This document shows positions 1,018 to 29,480 of a stretch of DNA of 64,000 bases, piece by piece. Numbering within the stretch: position 1 is the stretch's first letter; each line of letters begins with the position of its first letter. The translations under genes and the position numbers were made by a program. The stretch is from positions 82,101 to 146,100 of the forward strand of contig SUUO01000001.1 in the NCBI GenBank assembly GCA_015062485.1, given 5' to 3'. The notes beneath the pieces were generated by a model that had not been told where the DNA came from, made no database searches, and worked only from the letters and a program-made list of their open reading frames with translations. This stretch comes from Alphaproteobacteria bacterium. GTDB taxonomy: Bacteria; Pseudomonadota; Alphaproteobacteria; Rs-D84.

Positions 1018-1027
1018 GATGCCCACA

Positions 1028-1062
1028 ACATAAAAAATCCCGCATTTGCGGGATTTTTTATT
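1028..1062. terminator. bidirectional rho-independent terminator (cccgcaaatgcggg hairpin flanked by A/T runs)
   Basis: perfect stem-loop plus T-tract between convergent gap and the Cys-rich gene. Confidence 0.7.
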
Positions 1063-2014: not shown

Positions 2015-2020
2015 AAAAAA

Positions 2021-2150
2021 GAGGGATAAAATATGCAGAAATCAGGGATTTTTAATTATGAATTTATGCCGAGGAAAAACGTCCCATTGGATTCGGCATA
2101 TGTTTTTCGTCTCTATGCCGTGTATTATACCGTTTTGCGCGATTTTTATC
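2021..2150. promoter_or_regulatory. conserved ~130-nt 5' leader of the Cys-rich gene family (copy 1)
   Basis: near-identical to 49593..49722; core motif cgtcccattggattcggcat at 2080..2099. Confidence 0.6.
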
Positions 2151-2286
2151 AAGGCGTTTTTTGACATTTCAATGTTTTGATATCCGACCCCAGCAAATCT
2201 TGACAATTATCCTTTAAATTGCAACCGCCAAATTTAACAAACTGAACACGCATTTGATAAACAAGGTCAAATAATCAGAATAACAG

Positions 2287-2328
2287 AACGCCCACAATGG
2301 GGCGTTTGATTTTTGTGGCGGAGTATGA
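2287..2328. repeat. terminator-like repeat module aacgcccaNaNNgggcgtttgatttttgtggcggagta (copy 1)
   Basis: 25-nt exact identity (ggcgtttgatttttgtggcggagta) with 4165..4203; hairpin plus T-run. Confidence 0.5.
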
Positions 2329-2365
2329 TTTTATCACGACCAACCACATACAAATTCCAACCAAA

Positions 2366-3754
2366 CTATAAACAAACAATTCTGTCTATGTTGATATTTT
2401 TAGCAAATATCGTATCATGCGATACCAATAGAATCGCTCCGCGATATTGATTCAGCGCTTCTTCTAATATTGATATGCTTTTGATATCCAAATTGTTTGT
2501 TGGTTCATCCAGAATCAGTAAATCTGGTTGGTGGGGAGCACCTAATATCGTTGCCAATGTTGCCTTTAGTAATTCGCCACCTGATAATTGTCCCGCTTTC
2601 TTTTTGGATGCATCACCACGAAAACCAAAGTTTGCTGCGATTGCATGAGCATCATGTTTTAACACACCAGATATTGACATAATGTTTTCAACAACCGTCT
2701 TGTCGCAATCCAGCAGCGATAAATCCTGATCCAAATACACTATGCGACCAAAGGTTTTTATATCGCCCGACTGCGGATATAATTTGCCACAAATTATTTT
2801 TAAAAGGGTTGATTTTCCTGCTCCATTTTTTCCTGTCAGCCGAACACGTGTTGCACCATACATAGAAAAATCAAAATTGCTAAAAATTTGACTGTCTGCA
2901 TATGCGAAATACAACGAAGAAATTTTTATCAACTCTTTGCTGTAAAAGTCCTTGGACGGCAATGGAATCTTTATCATATCATCACGCATTTGACCAGATA
3001 ACATTTGCCGTTGCTGAATTTGGTCATTTAATTTTTTTTGAATTATTGCACGACGCTTTGATTCTGTTTCTTGACTTTTACCTTTTAGCGCATTTGCTTC
3101 AATTCTTGATCCTGATGCCTTATTCTTTTTGTCTTTAGCCTGTTTTGCAACATGGTGTTGGCGTGTATTTTGTGCAACCACCAACGTACCAGTTAAACGT
3201 GATATCTCTTTGGTACAGTCGATATATTTTGACTCTAGGTTGCGTTGTTCGGACTGTTTTTGCGCAACATAAAAATCATAATTACCACCATAGACACGAA
3301 TTTTACCGTTTGAAATTTCTGCTATCTTGTCCATATGCTGCAATAATTCACGGTCGTGCGACACAACCACAACACCAAACGGATATGTAATTAAAGCATC
3401 AAAAAAACGCGCCTTTGCATCTGCATCCAGATTGTTTGTTGGTTCATCCAACAGCAAAATTTCCGCATTACTATCAAACGCCCGCGCCAACAAATAACTT
3501 TGACGTTCGCCACCGCTTTTTTTATCAATCGAATTGAATTGATTTACCATATAGACATCTGCATTACGCGCAACCTGACCAGAATCTGGTGCAATGTCGC
3601 CATTTAGCAAACGCAACAATGTCGTCTTGCCCGAGCCATTGTCACCGACAATTGCGACTTTGTCTGTATTGTTAAAAACAATCGACGCACCGTCCAGCAA
3701 ATTGCTGTCCGTATCATAACTGAAAAACACATTAGAAAGTGATATAAATCCCAT
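2366..3754 (-). CDS. ABC-F family ATPase (two NBDs, no TMD)
   Basis: two Walker A motifs (GDNGSGKT, GKNGAGKS), two LSGGE signatures and a charged linker. Start taken at the internal Met (MGFISLSN). Confidence 0.85.
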   Translation of the reverse strand: MGFISLSNVFFSYDTDSNLLDGASIVFNNTDKVAIVGDNGSGKTTLLRLLNGDIAPDSGQVARNADVYMVNQFNSIDKKSGGERQSYLLARAFDSNAEILLLDEPTNNLDADAKARFFDALITYPFGVVVVSHDRELLQHMDKIAEISNGKIRVYGGNYDFYVAQKQSEQRNLESKYIDCTKEISRLTGTLVVAQNTRQHHVAKQAKDKKNKASGSRIEANALKGKSQETESKRRAIIQKKLNDQIQQRQMLSGQMRDDMIKIPLPSKDFYSKELIKISSLYFAYADSQIFSNFDFSMYGATRVRLTGKNGAGKSTLLKIICGKLYPQSGDIKTFGRIVYLDQDLSLLDCDKTVVENIMSISGVLKHDAHAIAANFGFRGDASKKKAGQLSGGELLKATLATILGAPHQPDLLILDEPTNNLDIKSISILEEALNQYRGAILLVSHDTIFAKNINIDRIVCL

Positions 3755-3997
3755 AACAAAAACCCTATAATATCGCAGTTGAACACCGTGCATTTTTACG
3801 CACTACATTTTGAAAAATACGATATTATCTACTCATTGGTTTTTGTCCTTATACTTGTTTGTATATACCTACTGTAGCATATCCATCATAAAAATCAACA
3901 AATTTACATCATTGCACATACTGGTAACCTTGTGGTGGGAAAGTGGCTGGAATCCGCCTAAAAACAAAGCCCCGACAGATTTTGTCGGGGCTTTGAT

Positions 3998-4017
3998 TAT
4001 TCCTGGCGGAGACGAAG
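3998..4017. repeat. attR-like direct repeat: 20-bp exact copy of the tRNA-Ser 3' end plus 6 nt
   Basis: tattcctggcggagacgaag is identical to 17871..17890, the last 14 nt of tRNA-Ser (minus strand) plus its flank. Confidence 0.8.
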
Positions 4018-4018
4018 T

Positions 4019-4160
4019 ATTCCCTCGCCCCGCGGGTGGCGGGGCTGTGGGGCATTCCTGACGGTTTTGCCGTACTATGTTTGCAAAACCTACTCATTGT
4101 CGAACCCACGCCACTATCGTGGCTTTACCGGGTTCGAACCCCGATTTCGGCACAAAAATA
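4019..4160. other. conserved island-end block (shared motifs with 29341..29458, 9470..9660 and 62800..63038)
   Basis: motifs gggttcgacaatgagta, gaatgcccc(a/g)cag and ggggcgaggg directly abutting the DR. Confidence 0.4.
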
Positions 4161-4164
4161 AAAC

Positions 4165-4203
4165 GCCCATATCGGGCGTTTGATTTTTGTGGCGGAGTAA
4201 GAC
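4165..4203. repeat. terminator-like repeat module (copy 2)
   Basis: see 2287..2328. Confidence 0.5.
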
Positions 4204-4491
4204 ATTTCTACGGTCATTTGCATACAACATCAGGGAATTTACAGGGAAATTTTGCCATTTTTGTCCCAAAAACCAATTTTGCACTGCGCCCGAGTCGCAT
4301 ATTATCCACTTCCCGTAAAAAATTCCCTAAATAAATAACAGGGAATTTATTTAAAAAGTGCTATAATTTTGTTGATTTTCTAACTAATTTTTGGTATAAT
4401 ACGACCCAAGTTAAGCAGGCGATTTTATCGCCTTTTTTATTTGCCCTGCCTGATATCGGTGGGGCTTTTTTATTACAAAAAAGGAATAATT

Positions 4492-5142
4492 ATGAAAAAG
4501 TCACACATCATCATTTCTGACATAACATGTATGAAAGAAAAATTCTGTATTGCAGGTTTTGATACATATGAAAAACGCATGAAACGTCTGATGATAGACG
4601 GCGGTTATTGGAACGCTAATCAGATTCCGACCAAATATTGTGAAATATTGGTCGACAATGAAGAATTTAAAGAACCACGAGATTACCCACACCGAACCGA
4701 AGATGTCAACATAGATATTAAATCTATAGAGATTTTGCAAGAATTTGAACCAGGAAAAGAGTTGGCAAACGCACTAAAAAGCAGCATATCAAAAGACATA
4801 CAAAGTATATTCCATCATCATGTCAAAGAAAATGCTTATGTGCCACAGAAAACCAAATGTCCTTCGTTGGGCGCCATATTGATTCCGGCACACAACATTG
4901 AATTCTTTACGGAAGATGGCAAGCTACGCGCCCGCATTACTGACTATTCTAAACAATTATATGAATTAAAGGTCAGTTGCAAATACCTGCGTGATATATT
5001 TGAAAAAGATAAAGATGTCAAAAATCTGAATAATGCCATTGCCGCTAGTCAGTATGCTCATTGTCGTATTGGATTGGCACGCAAGTTCCTGATGCAGGAA
5101 AATCATTGCTATTTAATGTTAAACGGGTTATTTTTATACTGA
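4492..5142 (+). CDS. hypothetical protein (island cargo)
   Basis: 216 aa (MKKSHIIISD...) with AAGGA RBS; no motif recognised; AT-rich. Confidence 0.5.
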   Translation: MKKSHIIISDITCMKEKFCIAGFDTYEKRMKRLMIDGGYWNANQIPTKYCEILVDNEEFKEPRDYPHRTEDVNIDIKSIEILQEFEPGKELANALKSSISKDIQSIFHHHVKENAYVPQKTKCPSLGAILIPAHNIEFFTEDGKLRARITDYSKQLYELKVSCKYLRDIFEKDKDVKNLNNAIAASQYAHCRIGLARKFLMQENHCYLMLNGLFLY

Positions 5143-5143
5143 T

Positions 5144-5569
5144 ATGACAAAGATTTTTACAATTGGTTTTAGTGGCAAAAAGCCCGATGATTTTTTGGAT
5201 ATCCTGAATGCAGCCAAGATAAACTGTGTTTGGGATATTCGGCTTTGGCGCACCAGCCGCTTTGTTCCGTTTTACAGTGGCACAAATTTGGCCGCAACAC
5301 TTGGTTCACGATACGAATATCATCCTGAATTTGCCCCAACGACAGATATCTTAGCGAGCTACAAAGATGGTTGCATCACCTGGCCTGATTATGAACGTAT
5401 GTATAGGGAATTATTGGCCACTCGCAACCCAACTGCGGGACTTGCCTTGAACTCTCTTGACCGCATATGCCTGCTTTGCACCGAAAAATCCGCAACACAA
5501 TGCCACCGCCGCCTAGCCGCAGAATATATCGCAGAACAATTTCCAGACATCGAAATTGTGCATTTATAA
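5144..5569 (+). CDS. DUF488-like protein
   Basis: 141 aa. N-terminus IFTIGFSGKKPDDFLDILNAAKINCVWDIRLWRTSR and ...YEYHPEFAP fit the DUF488 pattern (TIGxS..EeF...L..vDVR..P.S....LGG). Translationally coupled to the upstream ORF. Confidence 0.45.
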   Translation: MTKIFTIGFSGKKPDDFLDILNAAKINCVWDIRLWRTSRFVPFYSGTNLAATLGSRYEYHPEFAPTTDILASYKDGCITWPDYERMYRELLATRNPTAGLALNSLDRICLLCTEKSATQCHRRLAAEYIAEQFPDIEIVHL

Positions 5570-5586
5570 ATGAATAATTTTAGCAC

Positions 5587-8500
5587 TTAATAGCCCAACT
5601 CTTCTTCTTTTGCTACTTCTTGTTTGATGCATTCGTTCAGCCAGTCCAGCGAATCCTTTGCCCACATACGAACTAGTGGATTGGGATGCTCATGTAAATT
5701 CTGAAACAACGGAACATACTGTCTATAATAATCAGAAGTATTTCCCCACCAAGTATAATTATTTATACGGCTACTAATTATATTCAATTCATCCTTTGTT
5801 TCTGCTGTATCTATGAAATACTTTATTATTGGACTCCAATCTACTTGTTCGCATGAATTGTTTAATAGGCTCACTATTTCCATGATACAATTCCTGATAT
5901 TTTTTTGCATGTTTTTATCAACTGATTGTAAATATTCCGGAATCTGTTGATCTAAATGCATCGAAAACACATATGGCGACGCTCCATATTTACCATTAAA
6001 TCCATCCCCCAATAATCCCATCCATCCAGACAACCAAATACTATCTTCTTTAGCCATAGCGTTTAAAACATGCGGCAACATTACCGTAGGATGTTTTTTA
6101 ATTAAATTTTTTATTATTTTTGAAGCATCATTATTGTATTGCAATCCACGATAAGTGTCTGATGCGGCTGCCGTTTTAAACGCATCAAAAATAGTTAACG
6201 CCTCTTCTGGGTTCCAGTCTATTTTATGAATAATGTTACTTACATGATGCCCACTCATAGGATCTTTAAAAATAAATAGTATATTTTCTGTTTTTGCTAA
6301 GATATCAAATACCACTTTTTTACAATCTTCTGACAATACATTACCGCTATGCTGATAATAGTCCAGTGTTTCTACAATAAAACGACAAGAATCTGTTCCG
6401 AATGTATAGTATACCCCCCACAAGAAACTTATAACACGTTCTAAATCAACAGATTTTCTAAGATTGATACTAAGACCACCAATTTGTAATTGTAACAGTG
6501 AAATTTTTTTCTGTGCTATCAAGTCTAATATACTATCTACATCAGGATCCAAGAACCCACCATGAACGACCCAAATAAGCCTAATAATTCCATTTTTAGC
6601 TATCCATCTTTCATCTCCAAGAATCCTCGTTAGGATACCGTCTATATAAGAAGGATCTCGTTTCCATATTTCGTGCATAGCGACAGCGAGCAATGAATAA
6701 TTATCATTATCCATCGCCATATGTAACGCCATCAAACGATTTACAAACTCTTTATAATCCGTTATACAAGAGCCTATTCTGGATGCAAAATCATTAATAT
6801 TTCCAGCATTTTTACTTATGAAAAACGGCAATGAATCATATAAATGTTCTGGATTAGCCAAGTATGCGTCTGCAATTTCTTCCGATTTCTGCTTCATCAA
6901 AGAATGCGCATGTTTAAAATCTAGCTTGTCTTCTGTTTCCATAAAATACGCAACATCCCATTCTGATGGGACTATATAAAGCTCAAACAATGATTCTAGG
7001 TCTCTATCAGCTTTCGCCAGAAGCCTGTCTCTATACTCTATTAGTTTTTCAAAACCCTTGTCAGTGTTAAAACGTGAATTTGCTATAAAAGTTGGGATAT
7101 AATCCGGAAATTTTTCCAATAGAGATGAGACTAATGGTTCATATTTTTCAAATAATCCATTCATCAATAGAGGATTTGTTTTGTTACCTATGATCTTCAG
7201 CAAATCTTTTTTTAGCTCATCGTCGGCAGTATTGTTTATCTCTAGCAATATATTTCCCAAGGCGTCAAAATACGTTCCTACTTCAGACCATGTTTTTGGT
7301 TTATAATATGTTAGAGTTCGTGCCCCTTGAGATTCCGCTCCAGCCATACAGCTATAATGCCCACTGTTATCCAGACCTTTGTCTATCATTTTTAAGATTA
7401 TATTTTTTCCCTGCTTGAATTCTGGAATCAAAGATCGTAGCCAATTGATGCGTTGCTCCAAAGAGGCCTCTGTCGGGGCAAGAAAAACTTGCATTGTTTG
7501 AACCAACACACCTGTTGCATTATTTCCAATGCTCTCATTTTCTCCTTTTGCTAATCTGAACAAAAGTGCGGCTGCCCTTTCATACAAATCCCTATGAAAC
7601 ATTATTTTTTCTAATGTCCACACTATGCGTCTACGATGTTCAGAGATCTTATCCTTCATATCATCATCTGTCCACCCTTCAAAGGCATACTCTAATGAGT
7701 TCATTGCCAAGTCTGGTGCAATTTCAGCTAGTTGGCCGAATAACTCATTACTTGGCGAATTAAGCAATTCAGCATTAGAAAAAGGGGAAGTCTTGTCTCC
7801 GATGAAATATTTTACAAATTCTCTGACATTATCTAAAAATTTTATTTTTTTCATGAAACGCTCTTGCAAGGCAAAAGGCAACTCTTTGTAATATCTATTG
7901 ACCATATCTGGATGTGTTTTGTCATTCCACTCTCTTGCTAAATAAATAGCTAATGGAAACGGTTGCACAGAAATAGAAAATCCTTTTTGTTGTATTATTT
8001 TGCGTTCACTAAATTCGTTGTAAACTTCAAAAACTTTATTTTTATCAAGTTCGAATACCTCGATTATCTTGTCTATCTCATTTGGATCTGCCAACCCCAT
8101 ACCGCTATACCTACGTCCAGCAGACACCATTCCTGGCATACAGCCTATTTTAGTGAATAAAGACAAAACCCTAAGAATCTTTATTGTATCTGGTTCACAT
8201 TCACCCGTACGATCTCTCAAAAGCAATTTATATATGTCAGTATCCTTAAAACGCCCTAACTTTACAGTTTCGCCCCTTGACATAGCCTCTTTAATTTCTC
8301 GCGCAATATGTATCGCGAAGCGAGGAAAACCATCTGCGACCTTGACTACTGCCGCCCGCATATGCTCTTCAAGATCTGGAGCAATCTGCTTAACGATAGC
8401 AGCAACAACTTCATTAGATAACTTATTAAACTTTAGTTCTTCAGAATCATCATATGAATCATAATCTATTGTAACTAAAGTAATTTGGCCACCAGAAATA

Positions 8501-9369
8501 ATTCGTTTAATCGCTTGCAACTCATCTTTGTCACATTCATCAATAATTAATATAAACGGTTTATTTTGATCTAATGTTCTCAGAAACGGTATTAAAAAAA
8601 TTAGTTCGCATTTAGGCACATAAATTATTCTTCTCTTATCTTCTTTGGACATACGATTACACGCTTCCAAAACTGTGCGCGTTTTTCCTATTCCTGCCAA
8701 CCCACTAATATTAGATACTGGATTTTGTAATATACGAGCTTTTATCTCTTCAACAAAAGAATTTAGCCTATCATCTAATTGAAACTGATTTATGGCATCC
8801 CTAGCATTCCACTCATCAAGAGATTCGGCACCAACTTTAATCCACATCTCTCTCAAATCTGGCTTTAAATCGAAGATTATATCCTGATGCAAGTTAACCC
8901 AATTTTGCATATCTTCCGCATCTAGAAACACTGGGGTTGTGTTAGTAGCGCCAATATTATCTAGCTCATCTTGCATTGCTTTTATACGTGCTTCTTTAAG
9001 TTGTGATGGAATATGATCTTTTGTCGAAATAATAACAAAATCGTAGTCTGCTAACAATTTTTTGCACAATGCTGTATGGGCAGGACTAGCTATTTCCTCA
9101 GCACACTTGGCCGGCGACATACTCGTCGCCTTTAATTGAAAAATTGTTTGAGTTGACGGAATAAATTTATCTAGTACAGTTTTTATTTTACCATGTAAAA
9201 TGGCATCTATTCCCCCATCTCTAACGTTTTCGTTAGAACAGACCTCAAAATCCCAAGGCTTGAACCCCTCTGCAAACAACAGCTGTTTTGTGAGCCTAGT
9301 CAGTTCCACGTCATTTAAATTCTTAATAGTATCAATATCTATTTCATAGCAGCTCATATAATCTCCCAA
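5587..9369 (-). CDS. Mrr-like nuclease + P-loop (STAND-like) NTPase + long helical-repeat protein; Avs/antiviral-STAND-like defence candidate
   Basis: 1260 aa. aa51-55 DGGID and aa78-80 QLK match the Mrr_cat PD-(D/E)xK spacing. Walker A GLAGIGKT (aa223-230), Walker B ILIIDECD (aa273-280). About 950 aa of C-terminal repeats. ~35% GC. Confidence 0.6.
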   Translation of the reverse strand: MGDYMSCYEIDIDTIKNLNDVELTRLTKQLLFAEGFKPWDFEVCSNENVRDGGIDAILHGKIKTVLDKFIPSTQTIFQLKATSMSPAKCAEEIASPAHTALCKKLLADYDFVIISTKDHIPSQLKEARIKAMQDELDNIGATNTTPVFLDAEDMQNWVNLHQDIIFDLKPDLREMWIKVGAESLDEWNARDAINQFQLDDRLNSFVEEIKARILQNPVSNISGLAGIGKTRTVLEACNRMSKEDKRRIIYVPKCELIFLIPFLRTLDQNKPFILIIDECDKDELQAIKRIISGGQITLVTIDYDSYDDSEELKFNKLSNEVVAAIVKQIAPDLEEHMRAAVVKVADGFPRFAIHIAREIKEAMSRGETVKLGRFKDTDIYKLLLRDRTGECEPDTIKILRVLSLFTKIGCMPGMVSAGRRYSGMGLADPNEIDKIIEVFELDKNKVFEVYNEFSERKIIQQKGFSISVQPFPLAIYLAREWNDKTHPDMVNRYYKELPFALQERFMKKIKFLDNVREFVKYFIGDKTSPFSNAELLNSPSNELFGQLAEIAPDLAMNSLEYAFEGWTDDDMKDKISEHRRRIVWTLEKIMFHRDLYERAAALLFRLAKGENESIGNNATGVLVQTMQVFLAPTEASLEQRINWLRSLIPEFKQGKNIILKMIDKGLDNSGHYSCMAGAESQGARTLTYYKPKTWSEVGTYFDALGNILLEINNTADDELKKDLLKIIGNKTNPLLMNGLFEKYEPLVSSLLEKFPDYIPTFIANSRFNTDKGFEKLIEYRDRLLAKADRDLESLFELYIVPSEWDVAYFMETEDKLDFKHAHSLMKQKSEEIADAYLANPEHLYDSLPFFISKNAGNINDFASRIGSCITDYKEFVNRLMALHMAMDNDNYSLLAVAMHEIWKRDPSYIDGILTRILGDERWIAKNGIIRLIWVVHGGFLDPDVDSILDLIAQKKISLLQLQIGGLSINLRKSVDLERVISFLWGVYYTFGTDSCRFIVETLDYYQHSGNVLSEDCKKVVFDILAKTENILFIFKDPMSGHHVSNIIHKIDWNPEEALTIFDAFKTAAASDTYRGLQYNNDASKIIKNLIKKHPTVMLPHVLNAMAKEDSIWLSGWMGLLGDGFNGKYGASPYVFSMHLDQQIPEYLQSVDKNMQKNIRNCIMEIVSLLNNSCEQVDWSPIIKYFIDTAETKDELNIISSRINNYTWWGNTSDYYRQYVPLFQNLHEHPNPLVRMWAKDSLDWLNECIKQEVAKEEELGY

Positions 9370-9419
9370 AAAACGACTCTTATTGAGTAAGTATATATAA
9401 TATAATGTTCTAAAATCAA

Positions 9420-9660
9420 GCTATTAACATTCAACTTGATTTAATTTGTTTCTCGCGGTACACTTTCCTTGAATCCAATGGGAATTGGGTTCGGGGCTGT
9501 GGTGGCCCGCAGACGCGGCATTTGTCGTTAAAATCCCCCGACTTTGGTCGGGGAGCCGTTTGCTATAAAACAGGGCTTGCCCGAAGGCTGCGGAGCATTC
9601 GTTTGCTGACACCAACTCCCCGACCGTCAATTCCGTTGGCGGTCATTAATTTATAAAAAG
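9420..9660. other. structured non-coding leader upstream of the Avs-like gene
   Basis: hairpins ccccgactttggtcgggg and gggaattgggttc; motifs gaatgctccgcag and ccacagccccg shared with island-end blocks. Confidence 0.35.
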
Positions 9661-9670
9661 GGAGAAGCCA

Positions 9671-9919
9671 ATGGCAAAATCCGCAGGTGTATTACACTCT
9701 ACTATTGAGATTTCTGACAACATTCTGATTCAAGAAAGTACTTATTCATATATTGACGGTATAGACGCCAAAAGACCAAACGAAAAAACAGGCGTATCCA
9801 AACGCGGTTGGAGATGGCTTGGCTCCACAGAAGAAAGCAAAAAAGTCATTAATGGTGCTTTATGGATTGTGCGTGATATTTATATTAAGAACAGCAAAAA
9901 ATATAAGCTACCAAAATAA
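9671..9919 (+). CDS. hypothetical small protein
   Basis: 82-aa ORF with GGAG-like RBS. Confidence 0.35.
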   Translation: MAKSAGVLHSTIEISDNILIQESTYSYIDGIDAKRPNEKTGVSKRGWRWLGSTEESKKVINGALWIVRDIYIKNSKKYKLPK

Positions 9920-9930
9920 GGACGGATAAA

Positions 9931-10476
9931 ATGAAGAAGTTTAATCTATCTTTTTTAGCACTAGCTTTAACTGGGTGTATGGTACCAGATTACCCCGATG
10001 TCCCAAAATTGCAACCAGATTATACTGCCGACAATATAGAGGTATTGCAGGTTATTGATAACGATGAAATTCTTGCGTATTACAGGAATAACTTAGGGCA
10101 CTTTACAATAGACAACATGAAGTCAGATATTGTAGATGGTGGGGTGTATTCTGTAGACGGTGTAAAACAAGTTGGAGTATATCGCTATACGTCCGCATGG
10201 GGAACTGTAAAAACAGTTCCAGATTATACAATTCATAATGATATGGGACTAGAGGCAAAGTATAAGGAAGCGTTAGAAAAATACGACACAGACTTTCCAA
10301 AAGAAGAAAGAAAATATTACCAATCATTTTTTTGTGGCGGCGGTGCAACAATTGTTTATACACCACTTTCCGTATTATTTAGTCCAATATGTTTGTTAGA
10401 TAAAAATTGTTATTTTAAATTAAACTGTTTGTCTGATAGAGATAAGCGCGTTCCGTACAAAGACAGAAAAAGATAA
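9931..10476 (+). CDS. lipoprotein (hypothetical)
   Basis: signal peptide with lipobox LTGC. Confidence 0.55.
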   Translation: MKKFNLSFLALALTGCMVPDYPDVPKLQPDYTADNIEVLQVIDNDEILAYYRNNLGHFTIDNMKSDIVDGGVYSVDGVKQVGVYRYTSAWGTVKTVPDYTIHNDMGLEAKYKEALEKYDTDFPKEERKYYQSFFCGGGATIVYTPLSVLFSPICLLDKNCYFKLNCLSDRDKRVPYKDRKR

Positions 10477-10491
10477 AAAGTGGAAATAACA

Positions 10492-11058
10492 ATGAAAAAA
10501 TTATCGCCCGTTCTAACAATAATATTATTTGGTTGCGGATTGACTCAATCCCCTATATCCGACAATACAAAACCGAACATCCCCATAGAAAAACCATTGG
10601 CTAAATATCAAGAATGTATGGGATATTCTGATAAAACAATTATACACACAGAAGAAAGTCCAGGTAGATACATTGTCCTTGTTAGTGAAAAATCTGTTGA
10701 CCAACCCTGGACCAACAAGAAAGAGCAAGGACAAGTTTTCTATACCAGTTTGTTAGAATGTTCCGCAGGAAATTCTATAGATGAGTGCATGGACCAACAA
10801 CATCTTAGAGTTCGTAATATTGGCACAATGGATAAGTGGACGGTTGGGAGCATAAAACAGTTCAAAAATGCAGATTTTATGTTTGATAAAACCATACGCA
10901 CCGAAAGACTAAACGATGGCAGGTTTGTTGACATAACAAACTATTGTTATACAGATAGAAAAGATATAACCAAAAGTTATTGCGGTCACTTTGTTTATAC
11001 GGCCAACTGGCATTCTGAATGCAAGAACAAATTGATGGCGCCCGCCGACAACAAATAA
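10492..11058 (+). CDS. lipoprotein (hypothetical)
   Basis: MKKLSPVLTIILFGC lipobox; start at internal MKK. Confidence 0.55.
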   Translation: MKKLSPVLTIILFGCGLTQSPISDNTKPNIPIEKPLAKYQECMGYSDKTIIHTEESPGRYIVLVSEKSVDQPWTNKKEQGQVFYTSLLECSAGNSIDECMDQQHLRVRNIGTMDKWTVGSIKQFKNADFMFDKTIRTERLNDGRFVDITNYCYTDRKDITKSYCGHFVYTANWHSECKNKLMAPADNK

Positions 11059-11083
11059 TCAATGGGGCGAACACCCCATTGAT

Positions 11084-12535
11084 TCATGAATGTTGTACCA
11101 CATAATTTATACATTGTGTTAAGGCGTCAACTTGGTCTTTGTATTTACCATTAGGGAATCCTAATAGTTCTTTCTTGAAATCTGACAACCAAGGCGCCTC
11201 TTGTGGAAATCGTAATGTACCGTTTTCTATATAAGCACTAGCCCCCATTAATCTTGATGTTTTATCCGTATCAGGTTTTATTGGTTCAATTGCAAAATTG
11301 TATCCATGAGGGTCTCTTTGTGCCATTAGCATTTGTATCAATTGCGTTCCACTTGCCTTGTCTTCTATTAACAATCTTACCAAATGTCGTCCACCCATTT
11401 CATACTTCCAATAGCAATACACTTTTTCCACTTGTCTGATAAGGTCGGGCATTTCCCATTTGCCACGAACAACATCTAGCAGGTAGTATTTATACATATT
11501 GGATTCGCATGTCATCAATATAACACAGCAAGCGGAATATGCATTATTTGGCCCAGTTTTATTGGCGGTATCCCAGCTAAGGAAAATTCTGCGATACTTG
11601 ACAGGGTCTATGGATTCGCCCTGTGCCTTGGTATAGTAGTGCAGCCATGACTCTTTAATAATTCCGCCTTCTGGTGGACATGGATCTTGTTGATATTGAG
11701 CAACAAATGCATTTTCACCCATAGAGTTCTTTATGCTTGTTACAACATCCATATTTTCACGTTCTGCGTGCAGCAATTCGCCCTTGGCACGCGTAATTAC
11801 TCGCACTTTACCAGAAATGCGATTCTTGACCATCCAGTTTTCATCCTCGATTGCAATAATGGGCAGCTTAATGATATTGAACTGTTCACCCAACTCCAAC
11901 AAATGTCCAGTTAAATCATCCTGATGCAGACGTTGCATTACCAGTATAATTTTGCCATTTGCCTTGTCATTAAGACGCGAATACAACGTAGAGCCATACC
12001 ATTCATTCAATTTGGCACGCTGGGTTTCAGATGTTGCATCCACAGATTTCTGGGGATCGTCTATGATTATCCAATCTGCGCCACGACCGGTCAATGTTCC
12101 GCCAACAGATGTGGCTATGCGTCCGCCACCACGTGTGGTTGCAAAATCGTTTACAGCCTGCCTGGATTGATGCAGACGTGTCATTGGGAAAAGTTCACGA
12201 TACCAATCCGATTGCATAACGTCACGACAACTGATCGCGAATTTTTCTGCCAGTTCATCATTATAACTGACACAAAGGATTTGAGCCTTTGGGTTATGTC
12301 CCAGTATCCATGCCGGTAATGCGATTGAACATATCATACTTTTCATATACCGCGGTGGCATATTTATAATCTGGCGATTATGTCGCCCTTCGTACATATC
12401 CATAATTGCGTCACAAATGACATCAATATGCCAATTGTTCAGGTAATATGAACCAGGAGATACCTCGTTAAACACCTTTACCACAAAAGATTTAAAATCT
12501 GTGCGTAATATCGCATTCATAATTTCTTTATTCAT
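11084..12535 (-). CDS. phage terminase large subunit-like protein
   Basis: 483 aa; C-terminal RNaseH-like nuclease residues (KYKDQVDALTQ). Typical co-occurrence with upstream small protein and ParB-MTase in alphaproteobacterial phage elements. Confidence 0.6.
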   Translation of the reverse strand: MNKEIMNAILRTDFKSFVVKVFNEVSPGSYYLNNWHIDVICDAIMDMYEGRHNRQIINMPPRYMKSMICSIALPAWILGHNPKAQILCVSYNDELAEKFAISCRDVMQSDWYRELFPMTRLHQSRQAVNDFATTRGGGRIATSVGGTLTGRGADWIIIDDPQKSVDATSETQRAKLNEWYGSTLYSRLNDKANGKIILVMQRLHQDDLTGHLLELGEQFNIIKLPIIAIEDENWMVKNRISGKVRVITRAKGELLHAERENMDVVTSIKNSMGENAFVAQYQQDPCPPEGGIIKESWLHYYTKAQGESIDPVKYRRIFLSWDTANKTGPNNAYSACCVILMTCESNMYKYYLLDVVRGKWEMPDLIRQVEKVYCYWKYEMGGRHLVRLLIEDKASGTQLIQMLMAQRDPHGYNFAIEPIKPDTDKTSRLMGASAYIENGTLRFPQEAPWLSDFKKELLGFPNGKYKDQVDALTQCINYVVQHS

Positions 12536-12896
12536 TGTTGTTCTCCTTTAAATATTGTTTTAATATTTCTATGTCGTCCTGCCTAATAGCTGTGGCTGCT
12601 TTGGCAAGTTCTTCGTTTTTATTATCTGCTTCTGCCATCACAGGCAACAAAGTCTGCAACGCTTTTAAATCGCCTTGCACAGCCTTGTTTGTCGCCTGTA
12701 ATAGCATGGCTTGCTTTTTGCTTATTTTTACTGGCTTGCCATTTTTGGTCATTGGAATCTTTTCATTTACAATGTCATCCAGTAATTTATAAATATTTTT
12801 GCTGCCACTTGGTCGCCCCTTTGGGTTACCAGATTGGCCGGGTTTGAACTGTCCTGATTTAGGCGGTTTCATATAGCCCAATTCATAATCTGCCAT
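12528..12896 (-). CDS. small phage protein upstream of terminase (DUF5681/TerS-like)
   Basis: 122 aa, Lys/Gly-rich N-terminus; stop overlaps TerL start. Confidence 0.4.
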   Translation of the reverse strand: MADYELGYMKPPKSGQFKPGQSGNPKGRPSGSKNIYKLLDDIVNEKIPMTKNGKPVKISKKQAMLLQATNKAVQGDLKALQTLLPVMAEADNKNEELAKAATAIRQDDIEILKQYLKENNNE

Positions 12897-14200
12897 TACG
12901 ATACCTCTCGCTTTGCGGTTAATAATTCCGAATACGTTTTGCCAGACACTTGATGTACGGCATCGATATGAAACATTTCTAAAAACCTGCGGATAGCAGT
13001 ATCCACGTACAGTGGTTCCAGTTCAATGCCATAACAAATGCGTTTGGATTGGTGGGCGGCAATCAATGTACTGCCCGATCCAAGAAACGTATCCAACACA
13101 ACATCGCCACGCCGTGTGACGTCGAGCATCGCATCTTTCAGCATTTCAACCGGCTTTACAGTCGGATGCATTTGAATGTCTGACCTGTGCCTGCCGAACG
13201 CATTTACGCCCGCATACTGCCAAACATTTGTGCGATAACGCCCATTTTTACCAAGCTGAACATTATTGGTGTGTGATTCCTTGCCGTTTTTGAAAATAAA
13301 GCAGAGTTCGTGTTGACTACGATACAGACTGCCCATACCGCCCGAAGTCTTGCACCAAACACACATGTTTATCAGGCCTGAAAACGCGTCGGTTCCTGCG
13401 GACAATATTTCGCCCATGTGGCGCCAATCCATGAAATTGTACTGTAATGCCCCAGGGCGAGAATATTTCGCACACAATTCAAAGTTCTTGTGCAAAAACT
13501 GCGCGAACTCATCTGTACTCATCTCGCCAGATGCCATTTTAAACTCTTTATGCCGGATATTGCCCGAACTGCATACATGCCCTGATATTTTTACATTGTA
13601 TGGCGGATCTTGCAGAACCATATCTGCCTGACGCGTGCCAAGCAGCGTTTCAAAGGTCACAGCATCCAGACTGTTCCCGCAAATAATTCTATGGTCGCCA
13701 ATACACCACACATCACCGGGGCGTGTTACAATTTCGTTTTCTGGGATGTACGGCACATTATTTGCCTTGGAGTCCGCTGTCGTCCTATTATCCATAGTCA
13801 ATATATCCAGTTCAACATCTGAAAATCCCGTAATAGATACGTCCATATCGCCACAGATTTGTTCCAGTTCGGATATTTCTAACCGCAACAAATCCGCATT
13901 CCAACCACCGTTTTCGGCGATTTTGTTATCAGCCAGGCGATAGGCACGCTTTTGTGCATCTGATAAATGTGCCAGACGGATAACTGGCACGGTATCCAGC
14001 CCCAAAACTTGGGCGGCAGCCATACGACCGTGCCCGGCAATGATTTCCAGATTTTCGTCCACTAGTATCGGATTATTGAACCCAAACTGCTGAATAGATG
14101 CTGCTATCTGCTGGATTTGGCTTTCTGGATGATTTTTTGCGTTTTTCGCATAGGCGCGTATTTGATTTAGCGCCACGTTTTCTATTGTTAAAGTTTTCAT
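12896..14200 (-). CDS. ParB-like nuclease domain fused to DNA N6/N4 methyltransferase
   Basis: N-terminal ParB motif (GHGRMAAA). DPPY motif IV and FLGSGST motif I. Start taken at MKTLT with GGAG RBS. Confidence 0.75.
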   Translation of the reverse strand: MKTLTIENVALNQIRAYAKNAKNHPESQIQQIAASIQQFGFNNPILVDENLEIIAGHGRMAAAQVLGLDTVPVIRLAHLSDAQKRAYRLADNKIAENGGWNADLLRLEISELEQICGDMDVSITGFSDVELDILTMDNRTTADSKANNVPYIPENEIVTRPGDVWCIGDHRIICGNSLDAVTFETLLGTRQADMVLQDPPYNVKISGHVCSSGNIRHKEFKMASGEMSTDEFAQFLHKNFELCAKYSRPGALQYNFMDWRHMGEILSAGTDAFSGLINMCVWCKTSGGMGSLYRSQHELCFIFKNGKESHTNNVQLGKNGRYRTNVWQYAGVNAFGRHRSDIQMHPTVKPVEMLKDAMLDVTRRGDVVLDTFLGSGSTLIAAHQSKRICYGIELEPLYVDTAIRRFLEMFHIDAVHQVSGKTYSELLTAKREVS

Positions 14201-14386
14201 AAAAAAACTCCTTGGTTGTTGTTTAGATTGCAATACGGAGATTTTTTACTCGAATTGCTATATAATATACAGTGATTGCCAACTAGATTTTTTACAAACA
14301 CACAATATTTTTATAAAAACTTGATTTTCTGCTTGATTTAAGAAGCTTTGTAAGCAGTAATTGCACAACCCTAGAAGGAGGCATTT

Positions 14387-14887
14387 ATGGCAAAAATAGA
14401 ACTTCCAACTACACTGGATGCTCTGCGAGCAATGCCGTTTGCAGATCGGGCGACTCTTTGGGCTAAATACAGCCCACACCCATTCAAACGACAAATGCGG
14501 GCATTGTGGTACTATATTCAATGCGACCGCTTCAAACTGCGGATTGAACCAAAGTTCCTGACCAAGATAAAGAAATACAAAGACAATCCCACAGAATGTG
14601 TCACCCATGCGTATCATAATCGGTACTATATCCGTCCCGGCACGGTTATAACACGAACATTCCGCAGAATCATGCATGAAGTCATCGTCAATGACGACAA
14701 TACGTTCACGTATAATGGCGAAAAATATCGCACTTTATCCGCAATAGCCAAAGATATATCAGGCATCAAGATTTCGGGACCGGATTTCTTTGGCTTGTCA
14801 AAAAATTACAAACCAATCTTAATCAATAAAAACAATATGCATAGTAGAGCTGAAAAAAAATATACTTCTGCCCAATTTGCAAAATGA
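14387..14887 (+). CDS. DUF2924-like protein (recombinase-associated)
   Basis: 166 aa, AGGAGG RBS, directly upstream of the serine recombinase as is typical for DUF2924. Confidence 0.45.
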   Translation: MAKIELPTTLDALRAMPFADRATLWAKYSPHPFKRQMRALWYYIQCDRFKLRIEPKFLTKIKKYKDNPTECVTHAYHNRYYIRPGTVITRTFRRIMHEVIVNDDNTFTYNGEKYRTLSAIAKDISGIKISGPDFFGLSKNYKPILINKNNMHSRAEKKYTSAQFAK

Positions 14888-15078
14888 TCCGCTTTTCTAT
14901 CTGCCATGGCTATAGCAATACTCATTTCAATCCTATCTTGGACATCGGAAGACTTTTCATTATAGGTTGCAACGATATCTGCAATATTATTGTCCTGCTG
15001 TCTTGCCAACTTATTATTTTTGGCAGCAAACATAAAACCAGCAATAATACCTACAACCAAGAACAAATTAGAAATCAT
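14806..15078 (-). CDS. small membrane protein (hypothetical)
   Basis: 90 aa with two hydrophobic helices; overlaps the end of 14387..14887, so uncertain. Confidence 0.25.
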   Translation of the reverse strand: MISNLFLVVGIIAGFMFAAKNNKLARQQDNNIADIVATYNEKSSDVQDRIEMSIAIAMADRKADHFANWAEVYFFSALLCILFLLIKIGL

Positions 15079-15155
15079 GTATATCTCCTTTATTTATATA
15101 ACCTATTCTATAAGAACACAAAACTAGTATCAATTATAAAACCATAGGACTTAAA

Positions 15156-16745
15156 ATGACAATTAAATGTGCGATTTACACACGAAAGTCAACCGAGCAT
15201 GGACTTGATATGGAGTTCAATTCCCTGCAGAACCAAGAAGAGGCATGCAAGGCATATATTGCATCCCAATCATTCAATGGATGGCAATATTGTAAAACAT
15301 ACAGCGATGCGGCGATTTCAGGCGGAACTATGGAACGACCGGCATTAAAGCGAATGCTGGATGATATGGCACATGGGTTAGTAAATACTGTGGTAGTGTA
15401 TAAGGTTGACCGATTATCGCGTTCCATATTGGATTTTCATAAGATGATGCAGTATTTCAACAAGTATAATGCGAACTTTGTATCTATAACACAATCTTTT
15501 GATACCAGTACATCTATGGGTAAATTGACGCTGAATATGCTGTTATCATTTGCCCAGTTTGAACGCGAAGTTTCCAGCGAACGAGTACGAGATAAAATAC
15601 GTGCCAGTAAAGCCAAAGGCATATGGATGGGCGGCAATCCGCCGTTGGGTTATGATGTGATAAATAAAAAATTGATTCCGAATGAGGCTGAGGCCATGAC
15701 TGTTCGGACACTATTTGAAAAGTATCTAGAACTGCAATCTGTAAATGCACTGACCGAATATGCCGTGATGCATAATATATTCGCAAAACAATGGACGACA
15801 GCCAAAGGCATCACAAAGGGAGGCCGACCCATTGCCAAAATGAGTATGCATCGATTATTGCGTGACAGGATTTATATCGGCCAAATTGTAAACAAGACGA
15901 ATAATACTACTGCCCCGGGCGAGCATCAGGCGATATTACCCACAGAACTGTTTAATCGTGTACAAGCGGCCTTGCAAAACAACGCGAATAACAAGTCTGA
16001 AACACACGGTTCACCCAATTTGTTGACCGGCAAACTGTTTAATCACAACGGCGTACGCTTTACCAATCAACGAACATGTGGCAAAGGCAAAACCAACACC
16101 CATTATTATGCAACCCGTGGCTTTTATCTGCCAGCACCCCAGGTGGACGAAATCGCAATAAAAACCATAACGCGGTTCTCAGATGCAGATTTATCAGCGC
16201 TACCGTCCGCGACCGCAGATGCACTAAAATGCATTAACATCCAAAACGCGCCATACGCAGAAAAGAAAGCCTTTATTCAATCACTGATTGATAAGGTTAT
16301 ATACTCGCAGGATAAACTGATATTTTATCTGATACTAGACGTGGCAAAATTACAGTTGTTCGCGAAGGCCAACTTCATCAACCAGAAATCCGACCCGATG
16401 GAGTTCACGATCAGCGATAGACACATTGTAATAACCGTCCCAATCATCCTGCGTAAATACGTAAACACAGTGTTTGATAAAACCAAGAACGGTGTCCTGA
16501 CCATCACTGATAACAACCATCTAATCCTGAAAGCCTTCGCCACCGCTTGGCGATATCGTGAGATATACGAAGAATGCAGCGATGCAGACAAAATCATCGC
16601 ATCCGAACACACATCACCACGTCAGTTTTATAGATACCTTGACCTTGCATACATGAATCCAGAAACCGTCAACCGCATCCTATCCGGCGAACATAAAGTT
16701 AATGTTAAAGAATTGTTCCTGATTGCTAAAACTTCCAAAATGTAG
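15156..16745 (+). CDS. large serine recombinase (integrase)
   Basis: N-terminal resolvase domain AIYTRKST with catalytic Ser and VYKVDRLSRS; 529 aa with recombinase/zinc-ribbon extension. Confidence 0.9.
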   Translation: MTIKCAIYTRKSTEHGLDMEFNSLQNQEEACKAYIASQSFNGWQYCKTYSDAAISGGTMERPALKRMLDDMAHGLVNTVVVYKVDRLSRSILDFHKMMQYFNKYNANFVSITQSFDTSTSMGKLTLNMLLSFAQFEREVSSERVRDKIRASKAKGIWMGGNPPLGYDVINKKLIPNEAEAMTVRTLFEKYLELQSVNALTEYAVMHNIFAKQWTTAKGITKGGRPIAKMSMHRLLRDRIYIGQIVNKTNNTTAPGEHQAILPTELFNRVQAALQNNANNKSETHGSPNLLTGKLFNHNGVRFTNQRTCGKGKTNTHYYATRGFYLPAPQVDEIAIKTITRFSDADLSALPSATADALKCINIQNAPYAEKKAFIQSLIDKVIYSQDKLIFYLILDVAKLQLFAKANFINQKSDPMEFTISDRHIVITVPIILRKYVNTVFDKTKNGVLTITDNNHLILKAFATAWRYREIYEECSDADKIIASEHTSPRQFYRYLDLAYMNPETVNRILSGEHKVNVKELFLIAKTSKM

Positions 16746-17648
16746 CTATTGAGCGTTTTCGATAACCGATAACATAAACTCAGAAAACACCGCTGATGCA
16801 CCTACAGCTAACCGCGCATGCCTATCCAACATTGGCACACGCCTAGTTCCAAGTCCATGAGAGTCGCTAGCAATATTCCGTATATTAGAAATCGCATCAA
16901 CAATTTTGTTTAATCCAGATATCAGATTATTAATTTGCCTGTCGACATCTCCATCCTGATGCATATTGTAAAGATCTTTAACTTGCCTGTATAATCTCGT
17001 AATATCCCCTCTATCAGAAGGCGTTTCCCCTTTCTGCTCTATCGCGTAACAAAAAATTTCTTCTGTAACCGTTCTGGCCTTTGTTATGGCACTATCGTTA
17101 TTACCATTTGATATATCTTCAAACGCTCTATCAATTAATTGCCGTACATATTCTCTATCTATTCTATCCAAAGAAGGGGTTTCAACTGGAATTTCAACAT
17201 GTTGTGATTTTACATGATAGACACTACCTATTAATACCATTTCATTACCACTACACGATAAATACCCATTAATCTTTGATATAATGGTTGAAATTATTTG
17301 ATTGTATATGAAATCTATTTCATCAGGAGAATACCCACTAAATACATCCGTAAATCTTTCTTTTGAAAACATATATGTCAACAAATCTGAAATACGGTTA
17401 TTTTCGATACACCAATCTACTATCTTTTCCATATAAGCCCATCGACTTAAAGCCCCGCCGTAGGTATACGATAAAGCATACCCAAATCGACTGGCAATGT
17501 TACATATTGCAGAGCCCGTTAAATACGGCAATGCACACCTTACAGACCTACAATCGCTTTCTGATAATTTTATGTTATCAAAGTATGTATCCCCAATAAA
17601 AATATCCAGAATAAACCTGGCTTTTAATAAATCATACCGTTCATCCAT
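16746..17648 (-). CDS. Abi_C/HEPN-like abortive-infection candidate
   Basis: 300 aa; C-terminal R-x6-H motif (ISNIRNIASDSHGLG) typical of HEPN/Abi_C; AT-rich; att-proximal. Confidence 0.45.
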   Translation of the reverse strand: MDERYDLLKARFILDIFIGDTYFDNIKLSESDCRSVRCALPYLTGSAICNIASRFGYALSYTYGGALSRWAYMEKIVDWCIENNRISDLLTYMFSKERFTDVFSGYSPDEIDFIYNQIISTIISKINGYLSCSGNEMVLIGSVYHVKSQHVEIPVETPSLDRIDREYVRQLIDRAFEDISNGNNDSAITKARTVTEEIFCYAIEQKGETPSDRGDITRLYRQVKDLYNMHQDGDVDRQINNLISGLNKIVDAISNIRNIASDSHGLGTRRVPMLDRHARLAVGASAVFSEFMLSVIENAQ

Positions 17649-17876
17649 CTTACTTCACACCTATGTTTATTATTCTGTTGGTTATATAATGTCAACCTGA
17701 TGTTAATTCAATCCCCGAAGTGGCATCCATGTTTTGGGCAAGGTATGCAATGCGGGTGATTTTGGTAGGATTGTGCGCGATGCCGAGCATACACCAGTAC
17801 CATCGCGCAGAAAAACCCCCGGATTCTGGGGAAAAAGAAACATCCCGTGGGATTACCACGGGATGTTCAATATTCC

Positions 17877-17967
17877 TGGCGGAGACGAAGGGATTCGAAC
17901 CCTTGATACCCTTGCGAGTATACTACATTTCCAATGTAGCGCACTAGACCAACTATGCGACGTCTCC
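17877..17967 (-). tRNA. tRNA-Ser (anticodon GGA)
   Basis: 91 nt; 7-bp acceptor, anticodon loop TTGGAAA, long variable arm, T-loop GGTTCGAAT, encoded CCA. Confidence 0.9.
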
Positions 17968-29220: not shown

Positions 29221-29297
29221 CGGGGTGTAGCTCAGCCTGGTAGAGTACTTGCATGGGGTGCAAGGGGTCGCAGGTTCGAATCCTGTCACCCCGACCA
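29221..29297 (+). tRNA. tRNA-Pro (anticodon GGG)
   Basis: 77 nt cloverleaf; anticodon loop ATGGGGT; CCA encoded; terminator 29306..29330. Confidence 0.85.
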
Positions 29298-29340
29298 TAT
29301 AAATTTAAACGGGTCTTGTACCCGTTTTAATTTATATCAG

Positions 29341-29480
29341 TGAGTATGTCGGTTCGATACATCGCAACGCAGTTGCCAGGTTCGACAATGAGTAAGCGAG
29401 AACGAACGCAGTGAAGTTCGAGTGCTAACGAATGCCCCGCAGGGCACAAGCCCGAGGGAATCCTGTCACCCCGACCATAC
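29341..29480. repeat. partial duplicate of the tRNA-Pro 3' end (gaatcctgtcaccccgaccata, 29459..29479) preceded by a conserved element-end block
   Basis: 21-nt copy of 29277..29297; block shares ggttcgacaatgagta, gaatgccccgcag and gaggg with 4019..4160; downstream terminator also duplicated. Confidence 0.6.

Follow-up and report, generated by a model that had tools for sequence, protein, structure and literature searches.

Mobile defense islands inserted at tRNA genes are already familiar. Here we describe the region behind the 3' end of a tRNA-Ser(GGA) gene in a 'Candidatus Enterousia' genome, that of an uncultured gut alphaproteobacterium, within a 64-kb stretch of DNA (the window, by which we mean the whole stretch analyzed). 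Three units follow one another in this region: an integrative element of 13,679 bp that encodes a large serine recombinase, a block of 190 bp, and a remnant that carries an ABC-F gene. The main feature is a tRNA-targeting serine-recombinase defense island that retains a packaging module and is part of a three-unit accretion array.

Several described systems resemble parts of this locus. [quoted passage not shown] Unlike the recombinase element, they integrate into a repeat rather than a tRNA gene, possess a replication module and a known helper (ICP1), and carry no large terminase; there is no homology between the two beyond the recombinase fold, and neither a helper nor a replication gene was found for the element. 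Phage-inducible chromosomal islands (PICIs), capsid-forming PICIs (cfPICIs) and P4-like satellites are, in outline descriptions, likewise integrative, often at tRNA genes, with swappable anti-phage cargo and an ability to interfere with or redirect packaging; the same outlines give cfPICIs terminase genes. However, PICIs and P4-like satellites use tyrosine integrases and AlpA plus primase modules, and cfPICIs a tyrosine integrase and a full capsid gene set, none of which occurs in the element. The SatelliteFinder marker sets (tyrosine integrase plus AlpA plus primase; capsid set; psu/delta/sid; PLE genes) returned nothing with Pfam and PHROGs, and the element shares with those families only a general logic: an integrase, packaging genes and no virion genes. 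The literature on DUF2924 and on terminase-bearing satellites provided context only.

The integrase end of prophages resembling phage WO shows a similar order, with a DUF2924 gene beside a large serine recombinase gene, followed by methylase and terminase genes. In WO phages, portal, capsid, baseplate and tail genes come next, whereas the terminase gene of the element is followed by two lipoprotein genes and defense cargo. As for the tandem arrangement, full and decayed elements share one attachment site in Streptococcus thermophilus, where units of the ICESt1/ICESt3 family and the related cis-mobilizable elements (CIMEs) are split by copies of that site and the outer ones lack a recombinase. 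Those systems are conjugative and rely on tyrosine integrases at fda; the array described here occupies the 3' end of a tRNA gene and includes a unit of no more than 190 bp. Short repeats behind tRNA genes also have a precedent: the rtT region of Escherichia coli contains 178-bp repeats after tyrT, each with the last 19 nucleotides of tRNA-Tyr. Our 190-bp block belongs to a family of mini-units that, like the rtT repeats, are short, lie downstream of a tRNA and end in the 3' end of that tRNA. Unlike them, with which they have no sequence or Rfam match, mini-units add an inverted copy, a structured core and an association with many tRNA genes.

In the reading that we favor, with a probability of about 0.72 for the whole three-unit account, three unrelated mobile units would have stacked behind tRNA-Ser, the newest nearest the tRNA. 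The recombinase element would have been moved by its own large serine recombinase, probably together with the adjacent DUF2924 DNA-binding protein; it would have recombined at the junction between the native terminator and the tRNA, inside the 8-bp core TGGCGGAG, and would supply a new terminator for tRNA-Ser. Two swappable cargo slots, filled with anti-phage genes, would accompany a conserved core (recombinase, DUF2924, ParB-methylase, DUF5681, large terminase, two lipoproteins), and the element may package its own DNA into helper-phage capsids in a satellite-like manner. The mini-unit at 3998-4189 would be independent and would have arrived before the recombinase element, and positions 2316-3997 would be what is left of an element that belonged to the same recombinase family and came earlier, reduced to its two ends and an ABC-F gene.

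For comparison we gathered 80 related loci by a scan with the neighboring MiaB-like gene. All come from uncultured gut alphaproteobacteria labeled 'Candidatus Enterousia' or Alphaproteobacteria bacterium, and ruminants predominate among the hosts. The closest relative is L001, with 96% identity in the MiaB-like neighbor protein and 93.7% nucleotide identity in the flank. L081, a contig from IMG/VR, holds a second copy of the recombinase element. Outward from the tRNA, the array consists of the recombinase element, the core at 4190, the 190-bp block, the ABC-F remnant, the core at 2316 and the original terminator:

2285-2315: displaced native tRNA terminator, beyond the core at 2316
2316-3997, minus strand: presumed oldest unit, with a core copy (2316-2323), a remnant left arm of about 30 nucleotides (2324-2355), the ABC-F gene (2366-3793, minus strand) and a right end with terminator (3906-3997)
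3998-4189, minus strand: 190-bp block (B1), a tRNA-flank mini-unit (fold z-score -3.5; family data)
4190-4197: left core TGGCGGAG, the distal junction, from the L001 and L081 comparisons
4198-17876: serine-recombinase integrative element, 13,679 bp, missing in L001; L081, L008 and L082 share its ends or its core genes
17877-17884: right core TGGCGGAG, the tRNA-proximal junction of the recombinase element
17877-17967, minus strand: tRNA-Ser(GGA), intact, CCA encoded, the integration target (ARAGORN; Rfam tRNA, 59 bits)

The initial annotation had recognized a low-GC island bounded by an exact 20-bp direct repeat, the right copy of which overlaps the last 14 nucleotides of the tRNA. The repeat is real: the 64 kb contain two and only two copies of the 20-mer TATTCCTGGCGGAGACGAAG, one at 3998-4017 and the other at 17871-17890, whereas 100 shuffles led us to expect none, and the tRNA placement at 17877-17967 by ARAGORN and Rfam agrees with the overlap, the right copy consisting of the final 14 nucleotides of tRNA-Ser and 6 nucleotides outside it. 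Its role as a boundary did not hold up, as L001 and L081 set the left end at 4190/4198 with only the 8-bp core in common. In L001, the counterpart of 3906-4197 abuts that of 17877 onward, so that the block is present and the recombinase element absent, and the insertion relative to L001 is therefore 4198-17876, with the 8-bp core at its sides. An uninterrupted site at the same tRNA, which the initial annotation had suggested seeking in related genomes, thus exists in L001. L081 has the same element without the 4018-4189 block: at its left junction, unrelated DNA is followed by a terminator of the type found after tRNA-Ser in many relatives, then by TGGCGGAG and a homologous left arm, which starts GTGGACAATTCTACGGTTATTTGCATACAACA as against TAAGACATTTCTACGGTCATTTGCATACAACA in the window. 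The two elements are 98% identical in the terminase and 88% identical in nucleotides across the DuOB/DUF488 region. A homologous left arm also directly follows TGGCGGAG at window position 2316 and at position 5641 of L005.

The core TGGCGGAG, complement of the tRNA 3' end CTCCGCCA, is found at four sites in the window (2316, 4004, 4190 and 17877), and the true direct-repeat pair of the element is the one at 4190 and 17877. Serine recombinases use, and need, only a short shared core; the attachment sites here share just 8 bp, and the crossover itself would fall somewhere within them. From these alignments, we place the recombinase element at 4198-17876, between cores at 4190-4197 and 17877-17884, and consider that the 20-bp repeat does not mark its ends. 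The 20-bp identity is instead composite: six nucleotides (TATTCC) from the ends of two related element right arms, the core TGGCGGAG as the middle eight, and six (ACGAAG) of tRNA sequence kept at an older junction, where the ABC-F unit meets the 190-bp block. The proposal of tandem accretion survives in principle, with its junctions relocated to 3998-4017 and 4190-4197 and joined by a third, older junction at 2316-2323.

Composition and position also mark the element as foreign. It lies directly at the 3' end of an intact tRNA-Ser, encodes its own recombinase, and has a GC content of 0.389 over 4198-17876 versus 0.445-0.453 in the flanks (0.445 being the host value used for comparison), with minima of 0.362 at 4198-9430 and 0.378 at 16746-17876, in line with the low GC first noted for island and cargo. 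Its genes and features, annotated with Pfam, PHROGs, PADLOC and NCBIfam, are the following:

4198-4350, plus strand: left arm, starting TAAGACATTTCTACGGTCATTTGCATACAACA; homologous arms in L081, at window position 2324 and in L005
4441-5142, plus strand: DuOB-domain gene (Pfam; PADLOC PDC-M45C)
5144-5569, plus strand: DUF488 gene (Pfam; PADLOC PDC-M45C)
5587-9369, minus strand: PD-Lambda-4_A-like defense protein of 1260 residues (PADLOC E=4.9e-47, residues 5-731), in a variable cargo slot
9455-9670, plus strand: GC-rich structured leader before the o82 operon; the core conserved with L008 and L081 begins here
9671-9919, plus strand: o82 (translation, alignment)
9931-10476 and 10480-11058, plus strand: lipoprotein genes, with lipoboxes LTGC and LFGC
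11084-12535, minus strand: large terminase, TerL (Pfam; PHROG phrog_38, E=1e-110; NCBIfam)
12528-12896, minus strand: DUF5681 (Pfam, PHROG, NCBIfam)
12896-14233, minus strand: ParB-N6/N4 methylase (Pfam, PHROG, NCBIfam)
14387-14887, plus strand: DUF2924 (Pfam)
15156-16745, plus strand: large serine recombinase, 529 residues (Pfam Resolvase and Recombinase domains)
16746-17648, minus strand: AbiJ-like abortive-infection gene (PADLOC E=2.2e-71), filling the other variable slot, which adjoins the tRNA
17838-17868, minus strand: terminator brought by the element and now ending the tRNA transcript; same right arm in L033, L051 and L071

The Pfam domains bear out the recombinase gene and its DUF2924 partner at the tRNA-proximal end. 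The recombinase has an N-terminal resolvase domain (PF00239, E=4.4e-39), in which the catalytic serine S11 of the motif YTRKST aligns with the catalytic domain of the TP901-1 integrase, and a recombinase domain (PF07508, E=7.2e-11), with a weak match to the C-terminal region of the A118 integrase. A same-family recombinase lies beside tRNA-Ser in nine of the 80 loci (L003, L004, L007, L008, L010, L025, L033, L051 and L071), accompanied by a DUF2924 gene wherever upstream DNA is in view. These recombinases are mosaic: identity reaches 92-98% in the catalytic domain and 62-95% in the middle, and falls to 41-52% in the C-terminal 190 residues. Right-arm types also differ between family members. 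Between the DUF2924 and recombinase genes of the window lies an AT-rich spacer of 268 bp (14888-15155; nominal open reading frame, ORF, 14884-15147), whose product is 99% identical to its L004 counterpart, while the flanking genes are 66-78% identical; the spacer is missing in L008 and L081. It is a patch acquired by recombination or else a regulatory piece that has been conserved.

Family members carry variable cargo, mostly related to defense and including restriction-modification. In the window, three defense modules are predicted: DuOB plus DUF488, the PD-Lambda-4-like gene and AbiJ. DuOB and DUF488 form a candidate defense pair kept in L081 (88% nucleotide identity), where a type II restriction-modification set replaces the PD-Lambda-4_A-like gene. 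The slot between recombinase and tRNA holds AbiJ in the window, DUF2806 in L008 and L010, and an HNH-containing pair elsewhere; genes other than AbiJ occupy it in L008, L003, L004 and L033. Further cargo was identified as follows:

L033: DRT8 (reverse transcriptase and PD-(D/E)XK nuclease)
L003: AIPR, DUF4420 and C5 methylase
L004: C5 methylase and DUF6339
L025: KAP NTPase
L051: ApeA and D12 methylase

The core is 97% identical in nucleotides to L008 and L081, and the chromosomal flank about 84% identical to L008, a pattern that points to horizontal spread of the element. Comparison of the relatives thus upholds the view that a low-GC element, acquired by horizontal transfer and provided with a large serine recombinase, lies at the tRNA-Ser 3' end, and the 3' end of this tRNA-Ser(GGA) gene can be regarded as an integration hotspot.

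The initial annotation also saw a relationship between a conserved block at 4019-4160 and a block at 9470-9660, and took the latter for a possible accretion point. The first is indeed conserved in other loci. The two have just about 10 bases in common, GGGGCTGTGG, located in the block on the strand antisense to its structured core, and we discarded the idea that 9470-9660 is another attachment site; it is where variable cargo gives way to the conserved core. Homology of the window to L008 and L081 starts at 9431/9469, and 9431-9469 is a cargo-swap boundary between variable cargo and conserved core rather than an attachment site. The leader that follows (9455-9675) folds much better than its shuffles (z = -3.4), its copies being too alike (97%) for covariation testing. 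A hairpin at 9622-9644 sits just ahead of the ribosome-binding site. Downstream, o181 and o192 are lipoproteins; a homologue search with o192 returned 8 proteins and no domain. The o82 and lipoprotein genes possibly serve in surface exclusion.

At the other end of the element, four CAGGGAAWTT motifs lie in the left arm, at 4231, 4242, 4320 (inverted) and 4339; only three exact matches exist in the window, all clustered in this arm, and the motifs are likely protein-binding sites. Ahead of the DuOB gene, positions 4372-4400 resemble a promoter (TTGATT-17-TATAAT with TG), and a tandem pair of terminator-like hairpins comes next, at 4417-4433 and at 4443-4465, a layout kept in L081. The 4372-4470 region may be an attenuator-type leader for the DuOB/DUF488 pair.

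The outermost unit of the array shows the marks of the same element family. It shares its right end (3906-3997) with recombinase elements in L003, L004, L007, L008 and L025. Over positions 2333-4017, the distant genomes L026, L037 and L033 match the window at 95-96% identity, and the housekeeping neighbor in them is only 66-80% identical; the ABC-F unit therefore also moved horizontally. The ABC-F protein scores 379.5 bits, against a cut-off of 380, with the NCBIfam ribosomal-protection-like model NF000355, and far under the cut-offs of the specific Vga, Msr, Lsa, Sal and OptrA models. The gene has a low GC content (0.38), and its high identity across those distant genomes gives it the look of a resistance-type gene that is mobile among the gut bacteria of ruminants. 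Next to this unit, at 1058-2014 on the minus strand, a 318-residue ORF has no match in Pfam, NCBIfam or PADLOC and no counterpart among the 80 related loci. The entire region from the GAPDH gene to tRNA-Ser appears hypervariable.

Between the remnant and the recombinase element lies the 190-bp block, whose parts, read on the minus strand, are:

4154-4189: terminator, the block's own copy of a terminator of native type
4128-4153: inverted, degenerate copy of the T-arm and 3' end of the tRNA
4110-4123: small hairpin
4018-4107: structured core
4004-4017: displaced copy of the tRNA 3' end

Copies of 4018-4189 with 91-98% identity occur beside tRNA-Ser in 11 other Enterousia loci, and diverged or partial copies in two more. 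Their outer neighbors differ, and some of the host genomes are only about 65-70% identical in a neighboring protein. In four loci (L017, L036, L055 and L073), the block has the tRNA on one side and a right arm of the present type on the other, an order opposite to that of the window. These differing neighbors and the reversed order in four loci argue that the block is an independent unit. In L055 (9000-9450), B1 and a related mini-unit, B2, stand in tandem between an element right arm and tRNA-Ser; as each is provided with an identical terminator of native type, repeated insertion at the same tRNA end is indicated.

A pattern derived from the conserved B1 core retrieved 87 loci from gut metagenomes. 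In those that show a tRNA, the usual position of the core is 58-105 nucleotides downstream of an intact tRNA on the same strand, and further away if other units intervene. Fifteen tRNA species are concerned: Ser (GGA, TGA, CGA and GCT), Arg (ACG, CCG and CCT), Gln (TTG), Pro (GGG and CGG), Lys (CTT), Val (CAC), Gly (CCC), Met and Tyr. The layout is always tRNA, terminator, inverted copy, GGTTCGA plus a core of about 85 nucleotides, direct copy, terminator. The inverted copy is a degenerate version of about 28 nucleotides from the T-arm and 3' end of the neighboring tRNA, with a score of 19.6 for the cognate tRNA versus 14.7 for non-cognate ones; the direct copy reproduces the last 14-19 nucleotides of the unit's own tRNA, and the terminator after it is often the same as that of the tRNA. 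Unit size is near-constant, the repeat lying 170-196 nucleotides downstream for six tRNA species and 153-195 nucleotides downstream in 47 distinct units. The core hairpin shows compensatory changes in seven of its ten pairs, with G-U present and A-C absent on the tRNA strand. A long-range helix of 3 bp occurs in seven Watson-Crick variants and is fully paired in 66 of 86 modules, versus 35.9 +/- 2.9 when shuffled. A second hairpin of variable length completes the core. No protein gene is linked to the mini-units; only genes syntenic with each tRNA recur.

The same layout recurs in at least three further core families, and three of the four tRNA genes in the window (Ser, Pro and Glu) carry a mini-unit. 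The other two are:

29298-29477: mini-unit after tRNA-Pro (29221-29297), from the same family as the 190-bp block, with terminator, core caggttcgacaatgagtaag...cccgaggga, tRNA copy and a near-duplicate terminator; the 18-nucleotide 3'-end copy is at 29460-29477 and its original at 29280-29297
62797-63045: mini-unit after tRNA-Glu (62721-62796), with the same layout and a different, longer core containing GAATACGCAGACGAACAATTAGCAAA; the inverted end copy is at about 62844-62860 and the direct copy GTTGGGGCTGCCA at 63031-63043

The core family seen after tRNA-Glu is also found after tRNA-Ser in L018, L023, L031, L053, L057, L065, L074 and L077. Rfam 15 gave no relevant family at E<=1 to 10 (window positions 1-22000 including the block, the B2 block and the tRNA-Pro unit), literature searches on tRNA-flank repeats turned up no description of the mini-unit family, and the block motif had only two chance matches in IMG/VR, both inside coding sequence. 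We tentatively propose, at somewhat less than even odds, that the block represents an undescribed class of tRNA-flank elements: about 150-200 bp located after the tRNA terminator on the tRNA strand, with inverted and direct copies of the tRNA 3' end around one of several conserved structured cores at the T-loop position, being either mobile with re-templated ends or small RNAs on a tRNA-3'-half scaffold. The folded form would be either RNA or single-stranded DNA. By one route, a folded single strand whose stem mimics a duplex target would recombine with the tRNA 3' end, as in CTX phage; by another, the unit would be copied from the CCA end through RNA or a reverse transcript. A model in which an insert splits a second T-arm to form the block, the 5' strand of the T-stem being duplicated as well, found no support. 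Specific pairing of the closing stem with the cognate tRNA end is only partly supported (duplex energies of -16.0 versus -13.7 kcal/mol), and the cognate match of the inverted copy is clearer from alignment scores than from duplex energies.

We may also hypothesize that the 190-bp block is no unit of its own, and that it is what remains of a larger island, now without a recombinase and mobilizable in cis. Tandem arrays of full and decayed elements have the ICESt1/CIME precedent, and the left 130 nucleotides of the related B2 block coincide with the left end of the island in L033. Decay would hardly yield the near-constant size described above, nor account for fifteen different tRNA species, covarying stems, the consistent lack of a linked protein gene, and copies that each carry the sequence of their own neighboring tRNA in both orientations. 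We regard this origin as unlikely, at perhaps one chance in five, and retain an independent mini-unit.

The packaging genes of the recombinase element raise a different question. The window, L008, L081, L082, L231 and L232 make up a terminase-module subfamily, in which the junction between the lipoprotein and terminase genes is always the same and a structural gene never present. DUF5681 is likely the small terminase. Among the window, L081 and L008, the large terminase has a ratio of nonsynonymous to synonymous substitution rates (dN/dS) of 0.08, DUF5681 one of 0.02-0.03 and the ParB-methylase one of 0.15-0.16: the three genes are under purifying selection. A 5.4-kb human fecal virome scaffold, MT839917, has the order recombinase, DUF2924, ParB-methylase, DUF5681, large terminase at 45-57% amino acid identity, which points to an old linkage. 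No ORF of the element has a portal, capsid, tail or lysis match in Pfam or PHROGs, and no replication or conjugation gene was found inside its interval with Pfam, PHROGs, PADLOC and NCBIfam. Since the packaging genes are selected while capsid and tail genes are absent, the element may spread in the capsids of a helper phage, and 4198-17876 would be a candidate phage satellite with terminases and without capsid genes.

The same inventory could describe a dead prophage stump, in which a WO-like temperate phage has lost its head, tail and lysis genes and persists as an immobile relic where defense genes have accumulated. Alphaproteobacterial prophages, Wolbachia phage WO among them, begin with the same order of recombinase, DUF2924, ParB-methylase and terminase genes, the resolvase-family integrase gp31 of WO is 41% identical to our recombinase, and a DUF2924 gene adjoins the recombinase in Wolbachia prophage regions (PMC10299305). 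Structural, lysis and replication genes are all missing, as expected of such a stump. However, the same truncated architecture occurs in at least three genomes, at 97% identity versus 84% in the flanks and with cargo differing each time, which argues that it spread after truncation. Furthermore, a relic would not be expected to keep its terminase, DUF5681 and ParB-methylase genes at dN/dS values of 0.02-0.16, or to be missing from the closest relative, L001. A dead prophage thus seems improbable. The satellite-like reading allows for the same ancestry: a WO-like phage lineage may have given rise to a reduced element that kept integration and packaging and would have become dependent on helpers for its capsids.

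A number of points weigh against the account given here. The recombinase has no match to the zinc-ribbon domain PF13408 in Pfam, and its residues 280-340 hold one cysteine instead of the usual four-cysteine zinc ribbon. A pattern search of IMG/VR for an excised circle or joined ends (attP) found none, and any current activity is conjectural; a recombinase search of the same collection returned only two contigs, both already known via their terminase, and the right end of L233 terminates short of the junction. We identified neither a helper phage nor a packaging site (cos or pac) nor a gene for replication, and the terminase module could serve a purpose other than self-packaging. The arrival order of the two older units would follow from nesting alone. 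Lastly, L033 holds a 6-kb element of the same family (397-6485) whose left end, after a 19-bp tRNA-end repeat, starts with 130 nucleotides of B2-type mini-unit, and this end appears not fully reconcilable with the 8-bp-core rule. The exact and unique 20-bp repeat and this small L033 element, which begins with mini-unit sequence directly past its tRNA-end repeat, would suit a single 13.9-kb island (4018-17870) with 4019-4160 as its distal end and block-only genomes as deletion products, but that model looks already contradicted, and we consider it very improbable, by an element without block in L081, a block without element in L001, blocks that stand on their own in at least 11 other genomes and, without the recombinase element, next to 15 other tRNA species, a left arm that recurs immediately past TGGCGGAG at three other junctions, and the established need of serine recombinases for only a short common core.

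The locus illustrates how an exact 20-bp repeat can mislead, when the real junctions of a serine recombinase share only 8 bp. It provides a natural attP/attB pair for a serine recombinase that hits a tRNA 3' end and rebuilds both gene and terminator, and relatives with mosaic C-terminal domains and different arms offer a ready comparison set. More surprising is the mini-unit, which contains the tRNA 3' end in both orientations, accompanies 15 or more tRNA species and fits no family found. The recombinase element, for its part, would be a candidate type of satellite that keeps both terminase genes and no capsid genes, in a little-studied gut lineage with reduced genomes.

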